Under the pieces are notes generated by a model. It saw only the letters and a program-made list of their open reading frames with translations, had not been told where the DNA came from and did not search any database. A program made the position numbers and the translations under genes. This document shows, in pieces, positions 2,453 through 64,000 of a stretch of DNA of 64,000 bases; position 1 is the stretch's first letter; each line of letters begins with the position of its first letter. Source of the stretch: Daphnia carinata (Eukaryota); contig NC_081333.1 in assembly GCF_022539665.2 (NCBI RefSeq), forward strand, positions 11,160,001-11,224,000. The letters are read 5' to 3'.

Positions 2453-3150
2453 CTTAATAGAGAACTGCCTGGCTTGTTGAGAAAATCTGCAAGGGGAAAG
2501 TAAACATTGTCATTGCTTGACAAAACGCACACAAAGTTAGAATGCAAGCCAGAACAATAATTAACCCGCCAAAGGAACCAGAGTGATTTTTCATAAGTAA
2601 GTTGGAAAGCTCAAAAGTTCCGCGGGAATTGAATTTACGCCCCTTACATTCAGGTATCAATCGACCAGACAAGGGGCGAATCCGAAGCACATTCCTCGAA
2701 ATATTAAACATGACGTACAAGTTTTTAGTAAAAACAAAAAAAACAAACCAAAGTTACGGAACAAATGAAGTGGGACAGCTAGTTACGGCGACCGGCAGGA
2801 TGACAATTGCTATTTCGTAAGTGCTAGCACATCGTTGTCGACAGTGATGTTAACGTGATTGTGGCATACCGGAAAACCGTATTTTAGCGACATCGCACAT
2901 TTGTGCACGTGATAAATATGAACAAACACCTGTTGATGTGGAAAAATTTCTGTTTTCATTCTTTTTTTAGCTCTTGACGCTGATTGTTTTTGTTTGTAAA
3001 CATTTTTTGTTCGTTCACCAAGTTCACTTGCTATTCTCTAGCACAACAAAAGGAATGGCAATGTTGCTTAGTTTGTTGGTTACTTCTGCTATACTTCAAA
3101 TACCTTGATTATCCACGTGTGGTTTCTCCGTCTTTTTCGAAGGAATCACG

Positions 3151-5311
3151 ATGGCTGAAACCGGTAGGGAAAATATACCTGGCCAGCCTTCAGATGTTCT
3201 TTCGCATCCGATAGCTACGATAGAACCACTAGAAAATAGCAACAGTTTAATAGAACAGAAAGAGAAAGATGCCAAGAATCAGGGAACCATTATAACAGAA
3301 GGAAAAGCACAGGTTCACTATGCTGGATCTGAAGATAATGTTTTCTATAATCCTGTTCAGGAATTTAATCGTGATCTCAGGTAAAAATCACTAAAGAAAT
3401 ATTAGAAGGTTTCTTAATAAAACATTATTTATACATAAAAGCATTGCAGTACTGAGAGAATTTGCCTTGAACCACATCAAAGAACGAGATAAAAGTTTTG
3501 TTGGTGAAACATTTCTTAAACCAGGAGAAAGCTATGAGGTATAGAAAAATATTTCATATTATTATTATATTTGATTTTATACTGTATACTTTTAATAGCA
3601 TGGCCTGAATGTCCTTGAAGCCTTGTCTGCCTCTGGTCTGAGATCAATAAGATATGCAAAAGAAGTTGGAGGTCTAAAAAATATCCTAGCCAATGATTTG
3701 TCATCCTCTGCTGTTGAGAGCATAAAAACAAACAGCCAAATGAATGAAGTATCTCACTTGATCACTCCTAATGAAGGAGATGCATCGTTAGTAAAGTTTA
3801 TACCTTTTTAGTCAAGTTTTATTTATCTCCTCATTTTGGTTAGCAAAGGATCTTGATGTATCAACACAAACACAAAAAAATCTTTCATTGTGTTGATATC
3901 GATCCTTATGGATCGCCTTCACCATTTATTGATGCTGCTGTCCAGTGTGTGACCGATGGAGGCCTTCTCATGGTTACTGCCACTGACATGGTATTTACCT
4001 TTTATTCCACTTTTGGTATCGTTTCATAACATGACAAAAGTATTGTCTTAGGCCATTCTTTGCGGCAATGTTCCTGAAACATGTTTCGCTAAATATGCAA
4101 GCGTTTCCATTAAAACCAAAGCTTGCCATGAAATGGTAATATTTCCTTCAATGGCAAATTTTTGGTATCGCTTACGGATGATTTTTTATTTCAGGCTTTG
4201 CGAATTATTCTTCAATTCCTACAGACTACGGCTGCCAGATACGGACGCTATATTCGTCCACTTCTTTCTGTTTCTGTTGACTTCTATGTGCGTCTCTTCG
4301 TCGTGGTGCAGACTGGGAAAAATGAATGTAAATCGGCGGCTAGTAAATTGTCAATGGTAATGTTTGTTAAGCTAAAAAAAAAACAAGAAGATGCATACAA
4401 ATACCTTTTTATTTTTCCCAGGTGTATCAATGTGTTGGCTGTCATAATTTGACATGGCAACCTCTTATGAAAAGCGCGGAAAAGAGATATTCACGGGCCC
4501 ATGGACCCCCAACAGATACAAAATGTGAATACTGCCATTCCCGCTTAAATTTTGGTGGCCCTCTTTATTCCCAGCCAATCCACGACTTGGAGTTTGTTCA
4601 GTCTTTGCTTACCAGTTTGGATAATCCCGAGCTCGGAGAATTGAAAACAGAGAAACGCATCCGCGGTATATTAAGCGTAATCTCTGAAGAACTGCCAAAC
4701 TGTCCTTTGTACTTGAGCCTTGATGCAACGGCTTCAACACTAAAATTAAGCGTCCCTTCTTTAGTTATGTTTCGATCAGCAATACTGAATGCCGGATACA
4801 ATGTGTCTCTCTCCCACTGCTACCCCCTCTCCATTAAAACAGACGCTCCTATGTCAGTCATATGGGACTTGTTTCAAGGTACGTTCTTGTTTCCGTTTAA
4901 GTAATCAAAATCAATGGACAGTTGTACGTACTGTAATTTGCATACAGGTTTCGCAAAGAAACAGCATCCTGATAAAGTTTGGCCACGGCCCTTGGGAGAT
5001 AAAGCCTCTCCTACTCCGGCTGATTACATCCTGAGCCGGCTTGTCGCAGTCGAAGCTGATTTCACAACTCACCCCAAAGGAAACCCGTCTTCAAGAATGC
5101 AAAAACTTGTAAGGTTTCAAGAGAACCCGGAAAAGAATTGGGGACCGAAATGCAGAGCGAAAGCCAAGTAACCCGTGGTGTTATTCAAATATATAATTGT
5201 AGATTGTTCACGCCTTGGTTTTTATATTTTAGCGTTAGGCGGAACAAAGCGGATCGCCAATCGGAGAAAAAGAAACCACGTTTGGACGTTGACTGTAATA
5301 CCGAAAAATAA
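3151..5311 (+). CDS. TRMT1: tRNA (guanine-26-N2)-dimethyltransferase, multi-exon
   Basis: [42 protein letters not shown] and [13 protein letters not shown] motifs; last exon 5233-5311. Confidence 0.95.
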
Positions 5312-5937: not shown

Positions 5938-6287
5938 TTAATGCGATAGACGAGGACAACTTGAGTAAAGTTCGGTGCAGTTCGCGCCTGAGCGGCCCAT
6001 CATCGCCGCATCCATGTAGGAAGTGAATCCGCCGACATGACGCGTATGCAACAGATAGCTTAAAGGCAAACTAGGTGAAACAAATGGTGAGATAAGACTT
6101 AAAACTAAATTAAATCTTTTTTAAAACCTGGATAACGAAACAGCCCATCCTGCTTGTCCTGGCGCGGACATAGCCAGCCGGTTCATGCGGCACAAAGTTT
6201 CCTGAGTGCAGATGGTATTTTCAAGAACTGTGTCTTGCTCCCATAATTCGTGAACCATACTCAACCAAGTCGGACCGTCCAGCAGCA
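5938..6287 (-). CDS. Shared 3' exons (6287-6128, 6070-5938) encoding a DM4/DM12-like Cys domain
   Basis: Phase-1 acceptor ttacag|TG; VLLDGPTWLSMVHELW...ICTQETLCRMNRLAM...SLPLSYLL...YMDAAMMGRSGANCTELYSSCP*. The Cys spacing resembles the arthropod DM4/DM12 family (recognised by eye). Confidence 0.8.
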
Positions 6288-6395
6288 CTGTAATGAAAAA
6301 TTGGAACCATTTAAATGTATTCCCAAGCAATGCACACAATCAGATGATGCTGGGATTTACGAACAAAGATTTGGCGATGGCCCTAAAAGATTTAC

Positions 6396-7916
6396 CATCA
6401 GAGAGATCATTATCGTCCATACTACGCGCTGCTGCAAGCGTGGTCGATCTGATGTAGAGAAAGAAGCCGAGGAGACCCAAAAGTCCCACCAAAAGGATGG
6501 GCAAAAGTTTGTTCTTACAACATTCGTCATATCCACTGTACCCGTAACTACTTCCACCCCCGTAACCGCCGCCATAACCACCTCCTCCGCCATAGCTACT
6601 TCCTCCGCCATAACCACCTCCTCCGCCATAACCACCTCCTCCTCCTCCTCCCCCACCCCCACCTTTTTGACCACCGTCATCATCGTCGTCATCTCTATTT
6701 TTCGGGATGTATTTGGTAGTACCACGATCAAGAGACTCATCTAATCCCGGAATAGATCCGTGCGATTCGCCATAGTGTACCTTACCAGGAAATCTGTTCG
6801 CCTTAGGATTCTCATTCATGTCATAACCAGTCATTGTTTGGTAAGAATCTTTATCTCTGTATCGATTGTTAAGCCGATTTTGATCATATCTTGAATACCG
6901 ATCTTCTTCGTAAGTATCATCGCGGCTAGTAAATGACTTTGTATCAAACAAGCCAGCAGGTTCACCAATGGCACGAGCCGACGACTCTTTGCTTTTGGTA
7001 CCACCAGCTTTGGGGTTGACATTGGTACTGTGCAATTTGACTTCCTCAACTTCTGCGTAATCCGGACCGGAACCGTACGCTTCATCATAGTTCTCATCCG
7101 GGTAGAAAACGTCAAACGAGTCCCATCCGCCAGGTGCTGCGTTATAACAATTAACTGTGGTGTCAAGGTTTACTACCTGTCAAGCGTACGTATATTTTGT
7201 TATTAAATTACCCCACGTTTCAAATTGTCAATCTGTCGTTACAATGTTATCCGGAAAGCCTCAAGACGTCTTAAATTATACCACCAGATCGAGTGGGTAG
7301 TATCCAGAAGCTTTCGGATAACAGTGTTGATACAAGATTGACAATTCTTTTCTAAACATACCTGAGGTGATTCCTCCTCCGATGAACTGTGATATCTTCT
7401 GTTACTAATGGACGTTTTTTTACCGTTCTCTGATGTTTCATCAGCATTACGGCGATTACTATTAACCCGACGGGTTTTTAACCTAGTACTTCTAATGGCA
7501 CGAGATAGCGACTCTTCAGGAGCATCGGTCCACTCATAATCATCTACTGATATGGTCGCTGTTCGGAGACCCAGGATCCGCGGATCGCTTAAAATGCGTT
7601 TGGCCATTTTGCTGACTACTTTGAGAACGTCTCCTTGGACGCAATCTCCATTCAGGCAATAATCGGCAAACTCACTACGCGCCATTCTGAAATGCCGGCT
7701 GTTGATTTCGTTGCCGGTGCCGATGTCTGACATAGCAAGGAAATCGCCACTTTCAGGATGGTCGTTTGCTGAAAGACTAATATCAGCTGACGACCTGGAA
7801 GTGGTCGTTAAACCGTTGGTCACGACCAACGTCCGAGCGGAAAGCATAACGACTAGAACAGCAGCCACGCACTTGCGCTTTCTATAGTGGGATGGCACTG
7901 TCGACGGTCGAGACAT
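6396..7916 (-). CDS. Variable unit E (exons 7916-7362 and 7176-6396): Gly/Tyr-rich protein with hydrophobic segment, spliced to the 6287 exon
   Basis: A phase-0 intron joins two ORFs in frame; GGGGYGGG tract, ECCKNKLLPILLVGLLGLLGFFLY; phase-1 donor GATG|gtaaat. Confidence 0.8.
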
Positions 7917-8815
7917 GCCAACGAATCAATTCAAAAGGTAACTAAAAAAATCACTTTGATATCAAAAATCAGATGATGCTAGAAGCACCTGTACTTGATT
8001 AAGATAGAGGCTTCTTAAGAATTAAAGCAATAGCTAATTGATAATCACTATTTAATTTAGCGAATGGGAAGAACTAATGTCGACCGCCCAATGAAGCAGC
8101 TCAATCTCAACTGATAGCACTAGTAACTGAAAAATAGACGAAGCGTTGAGAATTGAAAGAGGATGGTGGGCAGTCGGTAATTTTCGACAGGGTACGCCTC
8201 CGAGTCTAGGAGGCGTTCCACGACACGAAGGAGAAGTTTTTTTGCCAGCCTCCGGAACAAGGTCGATGACCACGATTCACGACTGAACTTATCACCCGAT
8301 CATAACACAATGGGCTTAACTATCCAAGATTAAACGGCCCTTGCCGAAGGACTTCAGTTGATTGCATTCTATCGTGCAGGTATACAAAAAATTTAAATAG
8401 GCAGCCGTTAGTTATTTTCCGCTCAATCAAGGCAAGGTAGTTTGCCGTCAATTTTCACGGTGAAAACTTCATATAATTTACGTCCTTATTACGTTTCTCA
8501 AAACAAATCAAGAGAAGACCTTCGTACGTTACAAACTCTTAGGCGTTAAGAAAACTATGCAAAAAGATGAACGTAAATTTCATTTTTCCACATTTTAAAT
8601 TAAATAATTAATATAAAATCTGTTTTAGACGTACCGGTTACAATACCACAGCCTACCTGCAACAAAATGTGCAACACGACGCGGAAATAGTTATTCTAAG
8701 CGAGACGAAATGGTTGGTCTTTTAACACAATTTTTACTTACTGTAGGCTCATAGCATCTATTTACATTTACTATCTAGCCAAATATGTATTGGGCAACTG
8801 AATCTGTAATCATAC

Positions 8816-9317
8816 CTATGTCCTGATGGGAGAGGAGCTCTTCAAGACTTAAAAGATCATTGGCCATCGATCGCTTTCGACGGACTGCTGCCTTCGTAGT
8901 ACTTAGCAACTGGATGAGGAAGAGGAACAGGAGACCAAGAGCAATGAGAGAGAGCAATCCCAAGTAATCATGCTTTTCACAGCACATCTCGGAGCCATAA
9001 CCTCCTCCGCCATAACTCCCTCCACCATAACCACCTCCGCTATAACCCCCTCCGCCATAACCATAATCATATCGATCTCTTCTGGGAATGGCGCGAGATG
9101 AAGTGATCCATTCAGTTCTTAACATATCAGTTGAGCGTCTGATACGGAGATCGCTTCGCAAAATCCCCATTAGTGGACGGACAAAAGTCAACATTCGTTT
9201 CAGTTCGTACTCGGAATCCAATGGTTCTTGGTCGTTGGCACCGACCAAATAACTCAATGGATCCATGACCAGTAAGATACAACTTCCGAGTTTAATATAG
9301 GTGCTGACTATTACCAT
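8816..9317 (-). CDS. Variable first exon D (Gly/Tyr-rich, CC, hydrophobic segment, RRKR)
   Basis: LDSEYELKRMLTFVRPLM; GYGGGGYSGGGY; MCCEKHDYLGLLSLIALGLLFLFLI; phase-1 donor ATAG|gtatga. Confidence 0.8.
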
Positions 9318-9959
9318 TATTAGGTGCTATTAATTAGAGGAACACTATCACTCAACCGTTGGCAAGGCAAAAATCGGAGAATAAATGTCAAAGATCGGAC
9401 ACTAGCAATAGAGAATTCAGTTCACCAAAGAATGGAGATAAAACAAGGTACGAATTTCTTTCAAACGACAAGAAGGTTTTAACAAGTTACCTCTGCGACT
9501 TTCGGGAGTGAAATGTAAAAATAAAGCTCCTCCCATCTCTTATTCGTTAAAACTCCGCCTCCGGATTAATCCGGCCCTTAAGGGTAGAATTATTTTGCTC
9601 CAACCCCGCTGTGTGGGACAGCCCCAATAGGCACCTGGACGACGTAATCAAAATAATGCTAGCAAAAACAACGTCTGATATGTTTTTGCCCGCGTTTTTG
9701 TGTTTCCTCGAAACAATTCAACTGCGAAAAGTTCGAAGAGAAGTTTATAATTGAATCGGAATTTGAAATACTTTAACCCCCAACTCTCGCAGGTGAATTA
9801 CCTAAAGGACGAAGTAAATCAAGGGAAATAATTGACACAGAGGTAAAAACGTTTGATTCGTTACTAAGATTAAGCATAATCAACTAACGCTTACGATTGA
9901 ATTGATAGAACGAAGTTAACAGCAGCAAATGAATTATTTACTATACGCAATTGCCTTAC

Positions 9960-10506
9960 CACTATTATAATCGTTCGAGCGGATCCATCTGTCCTCATCG
10001 ATGCCTCTCTCCGCAGATCGTTTATTGCTTCGACGGCCAACTGGTTTACGGGCAATGGCAACTAGATAAAGCAAGAGACCAGCCAGAGCGAGAAGAGCCA
10101 ATATAGGAAGAAGATCATCTTTTTTATCACAGCAACCGTAACTTCCACCTCCACCACCGTAGCCGTAGCTGTAGCCATCTCGATCGTAATCGTTACGATG
10201 AAATCTATTGCGATCGCGATTGATGTCACCGTAGCGTAGACCGTAGTAGTCTTCTCTGTTAGATCGAGCTGAGCGGGTGGAATGTCCACTTCGATTGATG
10301 GTCCGATCAGTCCTCAGGATGGCCATCAATGGCGTGACGAACTTCAACATCCACTTTAATTCACGTTCAGATTCTAGTACCGAATCAACAATCGCTTCCG
10401 GCAGGTCATCGACCTCTTCCGCGCCTGCCACCCCATTGTAGGGGTTAGTGTAGCAAGATACTAGAAACGAAGCTAATGCCGTCAAAACACACACCGATTT
10501 CTTCAT
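9960..10506 (-). CDS. Variable first exon C (signal peptide, Gly/Tyr, CC, hydrophobic segment, basic cluster)
   Basis: MKKSVCVLTALASFLVSC; LESERELKWMLKFVTPLM; GCCDKKDDLLPILALLALAGLLLYL; phase-1 donor AGTG|gtaagg. Confidence 0.82.
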
Positions 10507-11011
10507 GTTTTCTAACTTTTCTCAGATAAACAACGAATAACAAAGTCTTCAAGATTACGAATGACTACGCTGGAGCTGTTTCGGGCAGGTGATAGTCTGA
10601 GGGCAGTACACAGAACCGGCAATGGAATCATTCAATCAGAGAATGAAGGCAGAAACTTTTCTTGCATGATCATTTTTGTCTATGAGCTATAGACACTAGT
10701 TAATTACAACCGTACGCCGCAACAAGTTTTTATCATAGTCCCTCCGTCGACTCCGCCTCATTCTGTAAATAGCCCATGCCTTTTCGTTCCACATCCTTCC
10801 CATCATCGTCCTTCATATTTACGCCCTCCCGTGAACTTGCGGTCATTGTCTTAGTAAGACGGTCACTGGATCCCCTTTTTTTTTAAGACCTGTAACTAGC
10901 GTGCAACATCTTAACATGCCTGGCACTCTGTATCGTTTTGCCTTTAGCTATTTCTTCCAGAGCTTAAAGACAAACTGACAGAAGACTTGAAACATTTGAC
11001 GAATTACTTAC

Positions 11012-11516
11012 TTTCTTCTTCCCGTTTAGGCGGTGTGATCATCCGGCGACGTCGACCGCCCGTGACAGTAGCGTTGAGCAGGAAGAAAAGAAAATAAGAG
11101 ATGGCCACCAGAACAAAACCGGGCACGAAAGTGTGGAAGTCCAATTTCTCACAACATCCTTCTTGGTAGCTTCCTGACGAGGAGTAATCGCTACTGCTGT
11201 ATGATGAAGAGTATCGTTTATAGTCGTTGGTGATCCTAGATTTTAGATGTTCCAGGCCAATCATAAATTCATCTCCCATCCGGCTGACGAGATCTATTCC
11301 GGGAGGAAATTGGCGTTGAACCGATGGACTGTTAGGTTTGTCATTCCTTTGGATCAACGTTCCGTCGCTATACTGATCCGATTGATTAACATGGTCTGAT
11401 CCATAGAATTGCTTCGGCGCAAACTGTTGATCCACTTGTCCTTCTGTCACCAGCACAACAACAGTCAACAACCACCAGAAGAATAAAACACCCCGTCGAT
11501 GTCTGTTGAAATTCAT
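11012..11516 (-). CDS. Variable first exon B (signal peptide, Ser/Tyr tract, CC, hydrophobic segment, RRRR)
   Basis: Hydrophobic N-terminus; YSSSYSSSDY; GCCEKLDFHTFVPGFVLVAISYFLFFLL; phase-1 donor GAAA|gtaagt. Confidence 0.78.
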
Positions 11517-12827
11517 CTTTCGTTATTTGTCTCTGTGCAGGTTGAAAAAAAAAAATTTGCAAGCTGATGGAAATAAAATTCGGTCACGACCTCCGATTGC
11601 AAAAATACGAAACTGCAACAGAGAGGGGAGCAATCAACTCAAATTGGAAATGAAGAGCATATAATTCAGTTCACAGTGGCTCGTTCGGGGACAGACTGGC
11701 AGGTTTCTCCTACATTTCAATGTTGGGCTGCACAGGTAACATGCTCTGCCCAGTAATTTCTCAGCAAGCTAGTTATCTAGTCTGCTTTTTCAAGTCAAAG
11801 ATTTATTCTTCAAAAATCGCCAGTAGGCAGGAGATGTGGCAACGTCTTCCCTCATGTCTCGTTTCGTATTCCCTTCAAAAAAAAAGAAAAACGAAGGTTA
11901 TGTCAGTGTCTAGCACTAGGGAAGATTGTTTCATTATCTCGGCCACAAAAACCAACGTTGAACCGATTTACTAACCTGAAGCGTTTATTGCGTAGACATA
12001 TAACGGAACAACGGATTAGTTTGAACATGGATGAGTGTTGATTAACTGTTCTTTGGCAGCAGGAACTACACGAGACAAACGTAATGATATTTTATAAACG
12101 TTCGAAAATTGTGTATCGCCCAAATCTAAACTACATATTCAACTGTTAATCAATCAAACTAATAAGTAGCTTTCTTCTTCATTTGTTACGTTTGGATACT
12201 ATCTGTTCCAAATGACTGGAATAACAACCAAAAAAAATACCACAATAAATGTAGTCTCTATTTTGTAAGATTTTAAAAGATACCTACTGGACATTTTGCA
12301 TATTGCCTTACGGTGGTTAATGTTTAAAGAAATCCAGTAAATTCATTTTCTCCATTATCAGTTTTCTTGGTGTTTGCTTTAGGTTCTACATGTATGAACT
12401 TGATACCTGTGGTAATTCGTTTGCAAAGAAGCACATTGAGCTGAAAATGTAAGGATTACATCCTTAGATGATGAGTTTCATAATCCCAGTCTGATCATTT
12501 ACATACAAAGTATAGCTTTATATATTCCACGATGTTTTTACCGAATTTTCGTCTGTATTTAATTTTCAGATTTTCGACAGAAACATTGACACCAACGAAT
12601 TCCCACCCGATGTCGTTAACTAACCGTAGCCAATCCCACATGATGAAGAAAGAATCACTGTTGAAGGTATAAATAAATCATAGCACACAGATTTTGTTTT
12701 ATAATCGGATTGAGGTCTAACGTACGTAAATCATCATTAATTAGCCGAATTCATCAAGGTGATTTGTAATTGTAGAATCATGAATCCTTCTGTTATGTTT
12801 AACGGATAGATATGTATGACTTCAAGC

Positions 12828-14378
12828 CTAATTAATGCGCGAACAGCTACTGAAGATTGCAGTGCAGTTTTCTCCATAGCGGCCCATTAACGAGGCATCA
12901 AGTAACTAAGGAAGCCGCCTTGATGTCGATGATGGAGCATGTAGCTGAGCGGCCAACTAGACAGCGAGACGGCCATCCCGGTTGTGCCTGGGGAATCGAG
13001 AGCTAGTCGATTCATGCGACAGAGCGCTTGGAGTGTGCAAGCATCGCCGGAGTCGTTTTCGTCAGCATTCCAGAGTTCGTCTACCATTGAAATCCATGTG
13101 GGAGCATCCATCAATTCTGAAAAAAAAAATTCCAACAAGAAACATGACAACAACCAAAAAAAAAAGAAACTAAGGTAACTTGCCTCATAATAATATTATC
13201 TTCGATATATGTAACAGTAATTGCTAATGGCTTCGTACATAGTTGATGCCAAAAAAAGAAAAACTGGTCGTTGAACTACGCCTGAAACTTCTGTCCGTAT
13301 AATTTACCCAAACATTCTCTATAGTAATTGGCCCAAGGCGAGCAAGTATAGAACGAGCATTTAACCCTTCAGGACAGTGTTCCCGGCGTTGTTTGATTAG
13401 CTTGAATGTTTTTAGAATTTTATATTCTTTGATTGAACTCTGGCTCTTCTATTTACTATAGCAATTTCTTATAATAAGCAGCCGTTGGGATCAGACTCCC
13501 GCTCGCATGACATCAGTCTATGCCTTTCTACTACGTATGCTATTTACATAGGAAAGTTTTGCCGCGTAAAAATTTGATGTCAGCACAACAGGTACGTATC
13601 AAAAGTCGATGATAATTTGCTATACTATTATCAGTTTTTCTCGACAATAAATTTATCATAAATGTTTTCAGTTGACAATGATGATTAACAACATACCTCT
13701 ATCAGGCTGATCTTCATCCACGTAGAGATGATCGTCATCAAGACTGTTTGGATTTCTTCCTTCATCCGTTTCCATCGCGACTCTCCGCCGTCTCCGGGCC
13801 GCTACTGTCGTCGTTGCAATAGCGATCAAATAAAGCAGTAAAAGCGACAAAGCTAACAACGCCAATATAGGCAAGAGGTCATCCTTTTTGTCGCAACAAC
13901 CGTAACTACTTCCACCGCCATAACTACTCCCGCCGTAACTGCTCCCACCACCGTAACCAGAGGACGAAGAATAGCCACCGCCGTAACCACTTCGATCGGC
14001 TTGCATCTCTTCTGGATATTTGTTGTACTGATTGTACATTGGAGGACGCCTGCCAGCACCCCGTTTTCTGCTCTGACCGAACACTTCTCTGGCCACCCGC
14101 TTATTCAGTCTTGATGTGGAGATCTCAAAATTTTTCTTCTGGAAGATACCCATCAAAGGTGTTACGTAGAGCAGCATCCGTTTCAATTCGAGCTCCGATT
14201 CAAGTTCATCTTCCACTTCTTCAGCTGCGTTGTTGTCTAGTAATTTATTGTAGGAAAAAGAGGCCATATTGCCCTCAGTTGCGGCAGTCTGTCCGTCCAT
14301 CGAGTGGTCGGCTGCGTGACCGGCAATAAAAATCAACAGTAGACTACACACAGTTTGTGTGCCAATGAACTTGATCAT
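12828..14378 (-). CDS. Paralogous two-exon gene A (14378-13697, 13116-12828): Gly/Tyr-rich, hydrophobic segment, DM4/DM12-like domain; apparent 1-nt frameshift near 12899
   Basis: ELESELELKRMLLYVTPLM, GCCDKKDDLLPILALLALSLLLLYL, RRRRR; phase-1 splice to ELMDAPTWISMVDELW...CTLQALCRMNRLAL; the shifted frame gives DASLMGRYGENCTAIFSSCSRIN*. Confidence 0.82.
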
Positions 14379-20299: not shown

Positions 20300-20550
20300 T
20301 CCAACTCCTCCGGCTCTCTACGGGTTCCAATCCCGCTCGTTGGCATAGAAATAGAATTTTTTTTTGATTTTGGGGAAGGCCAAGCAGACATTTCTTTCTA
20401 TAAGAATATATATAGTACCGGACGGGTTGTGCGTGTGTGTTAAGTGTTCAGTCAGTAAAGTGTTTTGAAACTTATTAGTTGTCGGAAAATGATATAAGAT
20501 TTTGAAGTTTTTTTTAGCATGTAACAGAGATTAACAATTTTAGCATCAAA

Positions 20551-23499
20551 ATGTCAGAAACTGAAGTATTAAAGAACATGGTGATGAGCTTTCGTGTCTC
20601 GGAATTGACTATGTTGCTGAGTTTTGCTGGACGTAGTCGATCAGGTCGGAAAACAGAATTGCAGATGCGAGCTCTGGAATTGATCAAATTACGATCTTCA
20701 CCTATAAATGCCAAAGTTCGCGAATTATATCGGTCAATTCAACAGCAAACAGTGGCAATGGGACAGAGTGCTGCAGAAACCACACCACCTTACATTGGTG
20801 CATCAACCAGATCAAGCTCATCTCTCTCGCCATCCAAATCCAGTAATTATTCTGAAATGGAGAGGGCTGCAATCCAAGGAAGAAATCCTTACATCCATAC
20901 CAGTGGTCTGCCTTACTCAACAGGTTACACTTCTAAGCAAGCTGTGTCTGGCGGTGGTTCACAACCATCATTTCCGGTTCACCCTGATGTCCGATTGAAG
21001 AGATTACCATTCTTTGATTCAATAGCAGAACTTCTACGCCCTTCCAGCTTGGTCCCTACAGGGAATTCTCGATATCACGACACAAATTTTGTATTTCATC
21101 TCACACCTCAGCAAGCAACAGACATAGCAAGTTCAAGAGATGCCAGGCCTGGGTCCAAAATAGACTATTTGAATCAAATTCAAATGAGGTTTTGTCTCTT
21201 GGAAACATCATGTGAGCAGGATGACAACTTTCCATCCAACCTCTCAGTCAAAGTAAACAGTAAACTAGTGACCTTGCCGAATCCTATCCCGACCAACAAA
21301 CCGGGGGTAGAACCTAAACGGCCACCAAGACCTGTCAACATAACTTCACTGTGCAGGCTTTCACCAACAGTGGCTAACCAGATCAATGTGACGTGGTCAT
21401 CGGACATGGGCGGGAGAGGTTATGTTATGGCCATCTATGTTGTCCGGCGTCTTGCCTCCACTGATCTTCTCCAGAGATTGCGAACAAAAGGAGTACGTCC
21501 AGCAGAATATACTCGTGGCCTCATCAAAGATAAACTAGAAGACGCCGACACAGAAATTGCCACCACATCTCTTAAAGTGTCGCTCGTGTGTCCTTTGGGG
21601 AAAATGCGAATGCAGTTGCCTTGCCGAGCAACATCTTGTTCACATCTACAATGTTTCGATGCCTCGCTTTTTCTGCAAATGAACGAACGAAAGCCAACTT
21701 GGGTCTGTCCCGTCTGTGACAAATCTATTCTCTACGATCAACTTGCGATTGATGGCTACTTTTCTGATATTCTGAATTCACCTCTTCTTCCGGCTGATAT
21801 TATGGAAGTTCAACTGAACGTCGATGGAACATGGACCGTGCTGTCGGCTAAAAAAGAAACGAAAAGTAGTATTACTTTCTTTTTGGGATGGAAAGAATTA
21901 TAAATTAACTTTTTATGATTATTTTGTAGAAAATACAAGTGGAGAAAGTTCAGTTAACTTGGACGTCGTCGAGGAATTGCCAACTAATCCGACGAATCCA
22001 AAGGTAGAGACTATTGATGAAACAGAATTGGAATTAGTTTGCGAAGGTCCTCCTCCCAAGAAGAAAGCCCCTATGGTAGTAGACCTGACGCTTAGTAGCG
22101 ACAGCGAAGAGGACAGTGACACTTTGATGAGTATCAAGGAGCGTATGCTTAGTCGTCAGCGTAGCTCCGGCAGTCAGTCAAGTTGCCCTGGTGATTCAGC
22201 CGACGAAAACGCAGCAGCTACGAATGGTATTGGGAGCTTATTCTTATTTTCAAAAAGCGCAATCAATTTCACATTTGCCTTTAATAATTTATTTAAAGCA
22301 CCTGTTAACCTCAGCAGCAACGTGAATACAGTCACAGGGAGCAGTAACAGCAGTCTAAGTTCATCAGCATCGAATAGCTCTGCGAGACCAGCTCAAAACT
22401 TTGAATCTTCGTCAGGGTTAGTTTATTCCCCACCTTGTATTGATTTGGATGACGATTCTCTTTAAATTAAAAATCAAAACAAAAAACAGAAAACAAAACA
22501 ACAATCCTGCTATTTTCCTGTCATAAAGATATACTTGAAGGGATCCATGTACCATCGTGCTTGAGTGACGTTCGCAAGGCATGCTTCTGATCCATTTGCT
22601 TCTGTGTTTGATTCGGTATACTTGATGGTTCACCTTCAAAACCATGATTATACTGTTGTGATTATTCCTTCGCTATTCTAGATATCCAGAGTATCATGGT
22701 GTTGTGATTCATTTCCACGCTCCACTAGTTCTTTTTACAGGTTTCAATAAAGTCGTCTTCTCGGTTTTGCTTTTATGTTTTCGTTTGTCCGTTTCAAAAT
22801 TCTTTGCCTCGGTTCGCAAAAAATTTCAGCATGACATTTTATGGGTTGATTTTCTACTGCTCATTTCGAACTTCGGCCTATTTTTTTCCCCCTTGTTCTG
22901 GTAGCGGTATTTAATTTCTTAGTAATTTTTCTTGGCTTTTTCGCATGAAGTTTCCTGATTCGTTGAGAGTCTGCCAACTTGGATGAATGGCATTCTTTTC
23001 TCATCATTATATCGTTGTTTTCTAATTGTGAACTTGAAATATTTGTTATCGTGACCCTCGAAGCGCTTTTTATCGAATCCATTGCCTATTTAATTTTCCA
23101 GAATTTTTGGAATGAAATTAAATTATTTTACAGCGTTAACAGTCCACTTGCATACAATTATATGGCCGGGAGCAGTTATGGAAGTCCGACTTACTTTTCC
23201 TACAGTTCATCAACTACCAATGGACAAAATCTTTATGCACCGTATTCCAATTTTGCCTATTCCTACGGAGGTATGATTTACTGTTCATGTTTTGTTTTTT
23301 TAAACAAACAACTCACTCATGTCTGTTGAAATTGTTGACAGGTACGAATGAGCTACAAAGCGTATTAGGCGACGCGATGAATGGCCACACCTTGCCAACT
23401 GCAGCGACCCAACATCAATCCCCAAATAATTCGGTGCCACCTGTTAGAAATAATTATAGACGATCCCAATCCCCACCAGATGTAATATCTTTGGACTAG
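20551..23499 (+). CDS. PIAS: E3 SUMO ligase PIAS (SAP, PINIT, SP-RING, SIM); probable alternative 3' end at 22465
   Basis: SFRVSELTMLLSFAGRSRSGRKTEL, RPVNIT, VSLVCPLGKMRMQLPCRATSCSHLQCFDA...WVCPVC, VVDLTLSSDSEED, terminal PDVISLD*. Confidence 0.96.
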
Positions 23500-60630: not shown

Positions 60631-63351
60631 TCAGCATCGCTCAAATACTTTGTAGAGATCAGGAAGGTCGGCAATCTGTAAGATGGTGCCGTCATTTATC
60701 CATGTTTTGGGAGGAAGTAATGAAGCTTTTATGGCAGGATAGAGAACATGCTCCACCGTCCACTTCCAGTCTTTATCTGAACCAACGTTGAGGACCTAGA
60801 GTGTGTTGACGAAAACCTTTTGTTAAGAAAACGGCTTGAGGCTGCAATAACCTATAGAAAATCTTACTTTATGGTCGTTGGGTTTTCGGTAGAATCGAGC
60901 CATGACTCGACAGATGGTATCAAAGCAATCTTTTTCCACGTTCCACTCAACATCAGACGCCAGTCGCAAAACAAAAGATGGAAATTGAGTAAGGTCCGGA
61001 ATATAATCCACTACATCAAAACGCAAATTTAGTGGCGACATGCTAGAACGGTGAATAACTGCTAAAACTGTTACCCAGAAGTAATGGTATGGCAACAAGG
61101 TGTCGTTTTTCGTTAATTTGCAGGCTAAAATAATCATCTAGCATCTCCGATTTGGAAAACAAAAGCTGACTCGCCAGATTCGCCAGGTGGTCCTTCGGTC
61201 CGTCATCTGGATGCCATGCATTCTCTTCCTGGTCCAACGCCATTAGGGCAAGATTGTACAACGGAGGAGGATCCTACAAGAATAAAATAACAAAAAATAA
61301 TTTCACTCAATGAGGAACAATATTGTCGCATCTATATATAGCGTTTGCTACCGATAGACAAATAACACCGCAATTGCCAAATTCATCAAGAAATCTCTGA
61401 TAAAAGAATTCCTCTGCAACTCTTTCCATGTGAAATATGTAGAGACGCGTTCCATATTGAATGAGGCAATGCTTCTCACTCACGCAACCGACGAATATTG
61501 AATCTTTAAAAGTATCACGCAACACTTGATCGGTATTTTTCTTTACATCTTCACGCAACTGGGTGAGACTGGTAAGTTCAAACTGGCGTCTTTCGACGAT
61601 TCCCTGTGCAGCTGCATGCAAAAGAAAAATACACAAGACATTACTATACGTAACGCTACATGGAAAAGAATTATTACTTGAGCCGCGATGTCTCATTGTA
61701 CTATCGCTGCAATCTGGAACTCCTTGAATTTCTCTTTCAGCTTCCGAAGGTATACGTTTTTCAGTTTCTTTCTGCTGGAAACCTGCGGCGACAGGCTCCT
61801 CAAAGGACTCCATAGAAGTTTGATTGATAAAATTACATTCACTTGATGACGACAATGGCATCGACTCCATGGTTGTTGACAGAAATTTATCGATTTTCTG
61901 ATCACGGCTGTCGGTTCTAACAAGTTGCTTGTCGTAAACTTTGGCACCGGCAACTTTACTATGCTGTTTGTCAAGGAAACTAATCGGCGGAATGACAGTC
62001 TGTCGGCACGAAAGGCTGAAAATGAATAATCCAACGCGTTTTGTTTATAATGAAATAATAGCTATTGTTTACCTGTACAGCAAAACTTCTCGACGTACTA
62101 GCAGCTTTCAGCAACATATCTGCTGACGACTGAATCTTATGTATTATGGCATCTTCGTTCAGGAAATGCACCTCGTGCTTGGTGGGATGAACATTAACGT
62201 CGACGCAATTGGGAGCAATTTCTATGCTCAAATAAACGAAAGGGTGTTTTCCTTTAGCGAGATAAGTTGCATAGACGCTATCCAGTGCTCTCTTTACAAA
62301 AAAAATAAATAAATGAATAAAAAAAGGCAAGTAAAATAATAATAATTGACATTAAAGTACAACCAGACTTATACATAACGAGAAAATTCTTAGTTCACCT
62401 TCAGCGGCGTAGATTCCACAAGGCGGTGGTTTATGAATAACAGTATGGTGAATTTCGTTCCGGAATAGTCAACATTGGATATCAGGCCGTTTACTTGGGT
62501 TATTTGAAACAAAATTGTTACTTATGCCATTACATTCTCCCCAATCAAACAGGGTTACCTTTAACTTTAAGACTTGGGTCTTCTACTTGAAGTTTAATTA
62601 AATCTTTAGCCACAGCATGTCCGTAGAGAATTCTGATGTTATCTTCTTGTGTTGAATTTGGAGATGTCCTCACATCTGACCCATTATCATTTAACTTCTT
62701 TAGGCTGAATCCAACTGAAGCATTGTGCACAGCAAATCGAGTGACAACTTCTATAATTCTGTTATGCTCCTCTGAAGGAGATCTCAGAGAATTCTTTCGA
62801 GTAGGAACATTATAAAAAAGGTCTTCTACCACTATTTGAGTACCCTGTATGAAAAAATTCTACCTGTAGTGTCGGCATCAGTAGGTTGGTAACACAGAAA
62901 TTACCTGTGTTCCTGCACACGGTTTGGGTGCTCCAACAAGCTTTCCATCATGATAGGAACATTTGTAAGCACATTGCATTTCACTGGTTTTGGTTATGAT
63001 TGTCAAATGGGCAACATGTGAGATAGACGCCAATGCTTCCCCTCGAAACCCAAAAGTACCAATGGCATTCAGGTCTTCAAATTTTTGCAGTTTACTAGTA
63101 GTGAAACGTTCGCATACAATCGCAAAATCTTCCTTATTGATTCCACTTCCATTATCTTGAATCTTCAATAGTTTCAGACCACCGTCTTTCACGGTCACTT
63201 GAATCGATGTAGAACCCGCATCCAAACAATTCTCCAACATTTCCTTGAGGGCATTTGCAGGTCGTTGAATAATTTCTCCAGCCGCAATTCGATTGACAAC
63301 AGTCTCATCTAATTTTAAGATATTCTTGGGCCTTTTGTTTGATTTTTCCAT
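60631..63351 (-). CDS. MLH1: DNA mismatch repair protein MLH1
   Basis: [58 protein letters not shown], terminal LYKVFERC*. Confidence 0.97.
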
Positions 63352-64000
63352 TTTTAAGCGGGAACAGAGTGTTAATTCAGTCAAACCCTGATCAAACCAC
63401 AAAACAGGTTTTTGTATTTTTTTTTTCAAGCAAGCTATTGCGCTGTTGCCGGCTAAGCTTTACGCGCTAGCAATAACAAGATCCGGCAACGCAAGCAAAC
63501 CTGATGATTACCCTTAGGCTATGTCAAAGGCTGACAAAGTTGAATGCCCTGATAAATTTGTAAAAACAATTATTTAAAATTATATTGTACCATGAATTCC
63601 GCTAGCAATTTTCGCTAGCAGAGCCGAGTGAATTACAGTTCTTGTGGGCTTTTGCGACATCATAGAAAATTCTGACCTATTATCATGAGTGAGACCAACA
63701 AAAAGATGCAGCTAGAGCTGCTCATGGAAAAGCTAAGGCACAAAACAAGCCACCTAAATTTAACAGATAGCGCCAAAACTTTTCGAATGACAATATTGGT
63801 AATCAGAAGTTTAATGCATACTATGCTTAAGATTTGTTAATCATTCTGGGTTACAGGAAAAACGCTATAACAATGATACAGTGGAAAAATTACAGTACCA
63901 AAAATGTCTCGATCTGTTGCAAACCAACATGAAAGTCACCTCATTGCAGTCAATGCTTGAAAGGCTGGAAAGCATATCTAGACAAGCAGGGTAAAAGACC

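Follow-up and report, generated by a model that had tools for sequence, protein, structure and literature searches.

Can several tandem 5′ units of one arthropod locus be spliced, each from a promoter of its own, to a single 3′ module? The question is raised by a 5.6 kb locus of Daphnia carinata within a 64,000-nucleotide (nt) stretch of assembly GCF_022539665.2 (contig NC_081333.1, positions 11,160,001 to 11,224,000), hereafter the window, whose first letter is position 1 of all coordinates given below. Four paralogous 5′ units, termed B, C, D, and E, stand here in tandem on the minus strand, with a further paralog, A, upstream of B (Table 1). A preliminary description of the DNA letters proposed that the four variable units are spliced to one constant cysteine module, in the manner of vertebrate protocadherin (Pcdh) and UGT1A clusters and chelicerate sDscam. 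The observation is real and the proposed architecture largely right; the principle itself is well known. The locus is probably one Daphnia-type gene in which four 5′ units with putative separate promoters feed one two-exon DM4/DM12-like cassette. That at least B and E share this tail is nearly certain, and features of the sequence make it likely that C and D are joined to it as well.

One cassette behind four units

Each unit is laid out as a leader, a variable region that is often Gly/Tyr/Ser-rich, a Cys-Cys pair, a membrane segment, a basic cluster, and a phase-1 donor. The core formed by the Cys-Cys pair, membrane segment, and basic cluster is common to B, C, D, and E, as expected of tandem paralogous 5′ exons, except that E lacks the basic cluster that the preliminary description placed before every donor. 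The membrane segments are pronounced, with a 19-residue hydropathy of 2.3–2.8. A hydrophobic leader had also been attributed to each unit; by the same measure it is clear in A, B, and E (1.86–1.91) and weaker in D (1.71), and in C it falls below the cut-off of 1.6.

The GT donors after 11012 (B), 9960 (C), 8816 (D), and 6396 (E) are all phase 1, as had been claimed, and all match the phase of the first constant exon. Joined in silico to the acceptor at 6287, the units encode proteins of 265 (B), 279 (C), 264 (D), and 542 (E) amino acids (aa) with no internal stop. These stop-free frames presuppose removal of a 57-nt second intron (6127–6071), and the shared module thus consists of two exons rather than the one first proposed. 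The introns leading to 6287 would measure 4724 nt for B, 3672 nt for C, 2528 nt for D, and 108 nt for E, with that of B containing the three other units.

A search of the window with the first shared exon (tblastn) returned only the exon itself, at 6285–6124, and the paralog-A copy at 13114–12959 (E 2e-16), all remaining matches having E>0.6. YAG sites between the units number 15, 12, and 21, with longest phase-1 continuations of 24, 41, and 27 codons, respectively, and none of them opens a module-like continuation. The earlier claims that no further 3′ module lies between the units, and that 6287 is their only compatible acceptor, are upheld. One common set of constant exons, without private copies for B to E, is what a variable-first-exon architecture calls for. 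Splicing of B, C, or D into the internal acceptor of E at 7176 was also tried and rejected: the acceptor is phase 0, as previously noted, and adds four residues before a stop. Translated, the shared exon shows 98% identity to a Daphnia sinensis protein and 90% to its D. pulex counterpart; for unit C and its D. magna homologue the value is 86%.

Evidence that units are joined to the cassette comes from relatives of the window's own species, in which at least two variable units, E and B, meet the same constant exons. Logan contigs were taken from four of the 11 matching runs, which derive from a relative about 90% alike and whose status as RNA is guessed, no run being recorded as RNA; the contig results here and below rest on 15 of 29 joints and 32 of 156 pieces listed. 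The joint 6287/6396, with intron ends CT..AC, is present in X1, X3, and X11 (three of the four runs, from three studies). One X11 contig has also lost the first intron of E, record 8 joining 7359–7837 directly to 6675–7173. The last shared exon is uncovered in three of the four runs, which carries no evidential weight. A metagenome scan reduced 140 pattern matches to five loci of 1.1–3.1 kb, none of which extends to B, C, or D. Four of these (L001–L004) are genomic, with a phase-1 intron separating the module from an E-type unit immediately ahead of it; in the fifth, JGI contig L005, an E-type unit and the two shared exons follow one another without introns.

For B, the join is already present in public gene models: D. 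pulex XP_046441977.1 and D. pulicaria XP_046642049.1, both RefSeq isoform X2, and the D. sinensis model KAI9561773.1. The two isoforms place the orthologous loci at LOC124192619 (D. pulex) and LOC124327165 (D. pulicaria), both listed as uncharacterized. The JGI proteins P0007, a B-type unit with the shared tail, and P0008, of E-type, have letter-identical tails. The read-through open reading frames (ORFs) P0208 and P0005 match P0007 and P0008 but diverge at both junctions, so the two proteins most likely derive from spliced transcripts. Of the junctions that the preliminary description proposed to look for, those from E and B to 6287 have therefore been seen in relatives' contigs or models.

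Units C and D and their alternatives

Support for C and D is indirect and comes from their donors, from the places where contigs end, and from the lack of private modules. Alignment at the donor column started from 154 representative proteins, of which 70 were aligned; the 84 dropped comprise 12 with the module, 29 without a unit match, 18 ending too early, and 25 ambiguous cases. With ORFs called straight on DNA, the signature scored was the residue pair expected from phase-1 xGT-A.. read-through (G/A/T/C then GTA) at the window's donor column. It is found in all 18 C-type sequences, 13 of 16 D-type, the single E-type, and 20 of 21 A-type, the last group serving as positive control because its annotated orthologues splice at that residue. 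Identity within the C group is 0.47 in the eight columns before the donor, 1.0 at the two donor residues, and 0.30 after; within the D group it is 0.34 before and 0.05 after. The read-through tails that follow vary freely in length, from 3 to 26 residues in C and from 0 to 54 in D. Contig records end exactly at 8816 (X1 and X3, two studies) and at 9960 (X11), and likewise within 3 nt of the sites 7359 and 7179 that E uses, although contig ends at one place are a weak hint.

Several observations count against a cassette shared by all four units under separate promoters. The donor signature occurs in just 7 of 14 sequences of the B control group, and many of the aligned homologues are close kin, which means that the donor counts are not independent. 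The contig end at 9960 comes from one study, and the partner exon is not in the listed pieces. No C or D junction is found among the joints listed, and contigs run unspliced across the C donor in four of four runs and across the D donor in two of four, a pattern that the intron of B, DNA, or true read-through would fit equally. A protein combining C with the shared tail is found in none of 37 C-homologues (100–319 aa length window), and one combining either C or D with it in none of nine module-bearing matches, which are B-type, E-type, A-like, Artemia models, and read-through. In D. magna RefSeq, C is a stand-alone gene, LOC123469381 (XP_045024173.1, 189 aa); D. pulex EFX77070.1 also reads through. 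No shared promoter motif was found upstream of the units, where common 8-mers number 2 against a random mean of 5.0.

Artemia franciscana bears on the same question. XP_065566896.1, with an E-type unit, and KAK2704371.1, with two other units in tandem (A/C-like), have identical tails, which is suggestive of a shared cassette. Artemia has near-duplicate loci, however, so identical tails need not be one exon, and this too is to be set against the reading of a single gene.

A rival reading is that only B and E use the cassette. As single-exon genes nested in the intron of B, C and D would then yield short membrane proteins lacking the cysteine domain, and their donors would be relics or rarely used. 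The stand-alone D. magna model, the read-through D. pulex protein, the lack of C and D fusions among the proteins found, and the contigs crossing both donors unspliced all accord with nested genes. Their similarity should not then fall away after the donor, however, nor should tail length be as unconstrained as it is in the spliced gene A, and contigs should not break exactly at the donors. Neither the B–C nor the C–D interval contains AATAAA or ATTAAA, which also speaks against genes ending there, although the 340 nt that follow the shared stop likewise contain none. Nested genes are considered unlikely.

It is also quite improbable that C and D work in a dual mode, mainly read through and polyadenylated within the intron with a minor spliced form, the choice being regulated at 3′ end formation. 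Such a mode would account for the stand-alone RefSeq model together with the conserved donors and contig breaks, but the read-through tails are conserved in neither length nor sequence and thus bear no sign of selection. Very unlikely, finally, is one upstream promoter with a non-coding leader exon to which the units are joined one at a time, as mutually exclusive internal exons: acceptor-like YAG sites do lie within 160 nt upstream of each ATG (e.g., 11532, 10596, 9326, and 7941) and paralog A has an intron in its 5′ untranslated region (UTR; joint 14399/14472), but YAG sites are common in the T-rich DNA here, contigs run unspliced across them (X1 11062–11722, 10466–10884, and 7359–8082), and no leader joint is among those listed.

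Table 1. Coding features of the locus and of paralog A, in window coordinates
Feature	Coordinates	Strand	Remarks
Unit B coding part (leader, variable region, Cys-Cys, membrane segment, basic cluster)	11012..11516	-	ATG at 11516; phase-1 donor GTAAGT
Unit C	9960..10506	-	ATG at 10506; phase-1 donor GTAAGG; stop of read-through ORF at 9934
Unit D	8816..9317	-	ATG at 9317; phase-1 donor GTATGA; stop of read-through ORF at 8775
Unit E exon 1	7362..7916	-	Phase-0 donor
Unit E exon 2 (Gly/Tyr-rich region, Cys-Cys, membrane segment)	6396..7176	-	Phase-0 acceptor, phase-1 donor
Shared (constant) exon 1, DM4/DM12-like domain	6128..6287	-	Phase-1 acceptor, phase-2 donor
Shared (constant) exon 2, to stop codon	5938..6070	-	N-C-T sequon and last two cysteines
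Paralog A 5′ coding exon	13697..14378	-	Context; own 3′ module; orthologues CAH0098088.1, XP_046441982.1
Paralog A private 3′ module exon	12828..13116	-	1-nt frameshift near 12900

Family, fold, and topology of the shared domain

The shared module belongs near the Pfam family DM4_12 (PF07841). Shared-type modules score 16.5–19.9 bits, below the gathering cut-off of 22, and the A-type relatives P0113 (22.6), P0124 (27.1), and P0138 (29.1) pass it, with P0116 (20.0) below. Four cysteines are conserved in the alignment, and an ESM Atlas structure match named DM4/DM12 reaches a template-modelling (TM) score of 0.87 over 94 residues, which meets the bar for naming. DUF1676 is absent from the Pfam matches of the shared module. 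An ESM Atlas search with unit C returned unnamed arthropod clusters only, under 0.9. DM4_12 is called a domain of unknown function in the available text of a study in which Osiris17 and Osiris24 of the brown planthopper carry it (PMC12825958). DM4_12 proteins, including these two, resemble the shared module in having a C-terminal four-cysteine domain behind a membrane segment.

The AlphaFold2 model of the L005 module (96 aa, 13-row alignment) is all-helical, with a predicted local distance difference test score of 74.6; the other four models score 51–54. Its top seven rows in Foldseek are serum amyloid A (SAA), with E of 0.17–0.51 and TM of 0.55–0.60. On VIA re-scoring, SAA (PDB 4q5g, 4ip8, 6py0, and 6pxz) gives a best Z of 8.0–8.7, with a root-mean-square deviation of 3.0–3.4 over 88–90 of 96 residues. 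The seven SAA rows range from Z 7.6 to 8.7, and the next, unrelated row has 5.9. The pairs are 12–15% identical, and a Z under 13 can reflect a common helical arrangement. The Atlas's own model lists two SAA clusters at TM 0.61–0.63, under the naming bar. A wide VIA search reached a best Z of 6.7 with SAA not among its 50 rows, possibly because the SAA chains scoring Z 8 and above may not be representatives in the wide library. A sequence profile against the PDB gave two chance-level matches and did not find SAA, and a literature search found no paper linking DM4/DM12 to SAA. For a domain whose function is unknown, the predicted SAA-like fold offers a structural lead rather than an assignment, and no function follows from it.

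The orientation of the domain in the membrane can be argued both ways. A cleaved leader and the basic cluster after the membrane segment would point to a cytosolic tail. The four cysteines, the N-C-S/T sequon (16 of 18 distinct modules), and the furin-like RxxR sites in A, B, and D would point to a luminal, possibly released tail.

Proposed model, origin, and known counterparts

In the gene proposed here, with all four units served by one cassette, transcription would start in front of one unit, at a putative promoter of its own. The phase-1 donor of the chosen unit would then be spliced to 6287, with any intervening units removed within the intron. The predicted products are single-pass membrane proteins of the four lengths given above, differing in leader, outer region, and membrane anchor and having in common a four-cysteine helical domain of about 97 aa. 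Family context suggests an epidermal or cuticle-associated membrane protein whose isoforms might be deployed by tissue or by moult stage rather than as a combinatorial identity code. Desi, for comparison, is a single-pass epidermal protein according to the available text of PMC4661605. The units likely originated as tandem copies of an A-like gene, in which the 5′ exon was retained but the copy's own 3′ module was lost.

Grainyhead-like sites occur at 8633, 9481, 10614, and 10721, in the DNA preceding C, D, and E; four such sites in 4257 nt, compared with 12 in 48000 nt, are too few to claim.

The age of the units was assessed with a tree of 28 rows over a 49-column core, which has few columns and many open forks. 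The supported clades are B-type (99/98), D-type (98/98), and E-type (100/96), the last including Artemia, with C and A in an unresolved group. B, D, and E are thus old orthologous types. Two C-like types are seen among the homologues in other cladocerans (P0027–P0043 and P0162), and species may accordingly differ in how many variable units they have. A broader reading, doubtful but conceivable, is that of an ancient crustacean gene, conserved from Daphnia to Artemia, with at least four promoter-chosen membrane-anchor exons and one shared domain distantly related to SAA. If true, it would supply a fold for the unexplained DM4/DM12 family, together with a testable role in lipid or retinoid binding at the epidermis or cuticle. 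The protein P0238 (574 aa) repeats a Cys-Cys/hydrophobic/poly-Asn/G-RRKR unit several times in one ORF, resembling the variable units in polyprotein form, and P0141 combines a ribosomal L24 domain with a DM4/DM12-like tail matching that of P0136, likely through a gene-model fusion.

The likeness to known clusters holds for the gene layout, not for homology or scale. Tandem paralogous first exons of one phase, encoding a leader and N-terminal region before common constant exons, characterize Pcdh alpha/gamma, UGT1A, UGT2A, and GCNT2 as presented in the available part of PMC1885805. The same text gives GCNT2 three variable and two constant exons, and UGT2A two variable exons in mammals, small numbers that the four Daphnia units match. 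Unlike those of the vertebrate clusters, the Daphnia units are short and of low complexity, E has two exons, and the separate promoters are putative; in UGT1 the membrane anchor is in the constant part, whereas here it is in the variable part. Chelicerate sDscam is likewise an arthropod gene with tandem 5′ cassettes, some of them multi-exon, and common 3′ exons, but its cassettes as described in the available text of PMC4835542 are numerous, carry Ig domains, and have promoter activity in reporter assays. The Daphnia locus has four units, without the large expansion, and no Pfam match to cadherin, UGT, or Ig domains was found in eight window pieces or 18 related proteins. Since its unit types are few, old, and orthologous, the locus resembles GCNT2 and UGT2A more than a recognition code.

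Literature searches found no published description of the locus, most subscription journals and supplements being outside their scope. It represents a compact arthropod case of variable first exons outside Dscam, in a tractable model genus. Existing annotations conflict: D. magna RefSeq treats C as a gene in its own right, and the D. galeata model CAH0098190.1, which is without the tail and probably a prediction error, merges B with a C-like unit. Expression counts based on either model may consequently be misassigned. With intact single-unit paralogs adjacent to it, the locus also allows direct study of how tandem genes come to use one tail.

The neighbouring paralog A has the same phase-1 junction, from the donor after 13697 to the acceptor at 13116, and a private 3′ exon, as the preliminary description stated. 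To this is added a 1-nt frameshift in that exon, relative to homologues in D. galeata, D. pulex, and Artemia, with the frame change at 12899/12902 (tblastn with the D. galeata orthologue); it is either an assembly error or a recent loss. Joined to the shared exon at 6287, the donor of A likewise keeps the reading frame open, giving 324 aa, and A, with its tail frameshifted in the window, could be a fifth variable exon being recruited. The 5′ UTR intron of A is seen spliced on the minus strand in X1 and X11. Non-canonical skips in deeper contigs (6513/7561, 7628/7700, 13118/13810, and 13854/14193) indicate that the genome of the relative has additional E-like and A-like paralogs at other places. 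ORFs flanking the locus at 558–2509, 3109–4904, 20518–21903, and 62878–63459 presumably encode, judging by their sequence motifs, dipeptidyl peptidase 3, the tRNA dimethyltransferase TRM1, a PIAS SUMO ligase, and MLH1.

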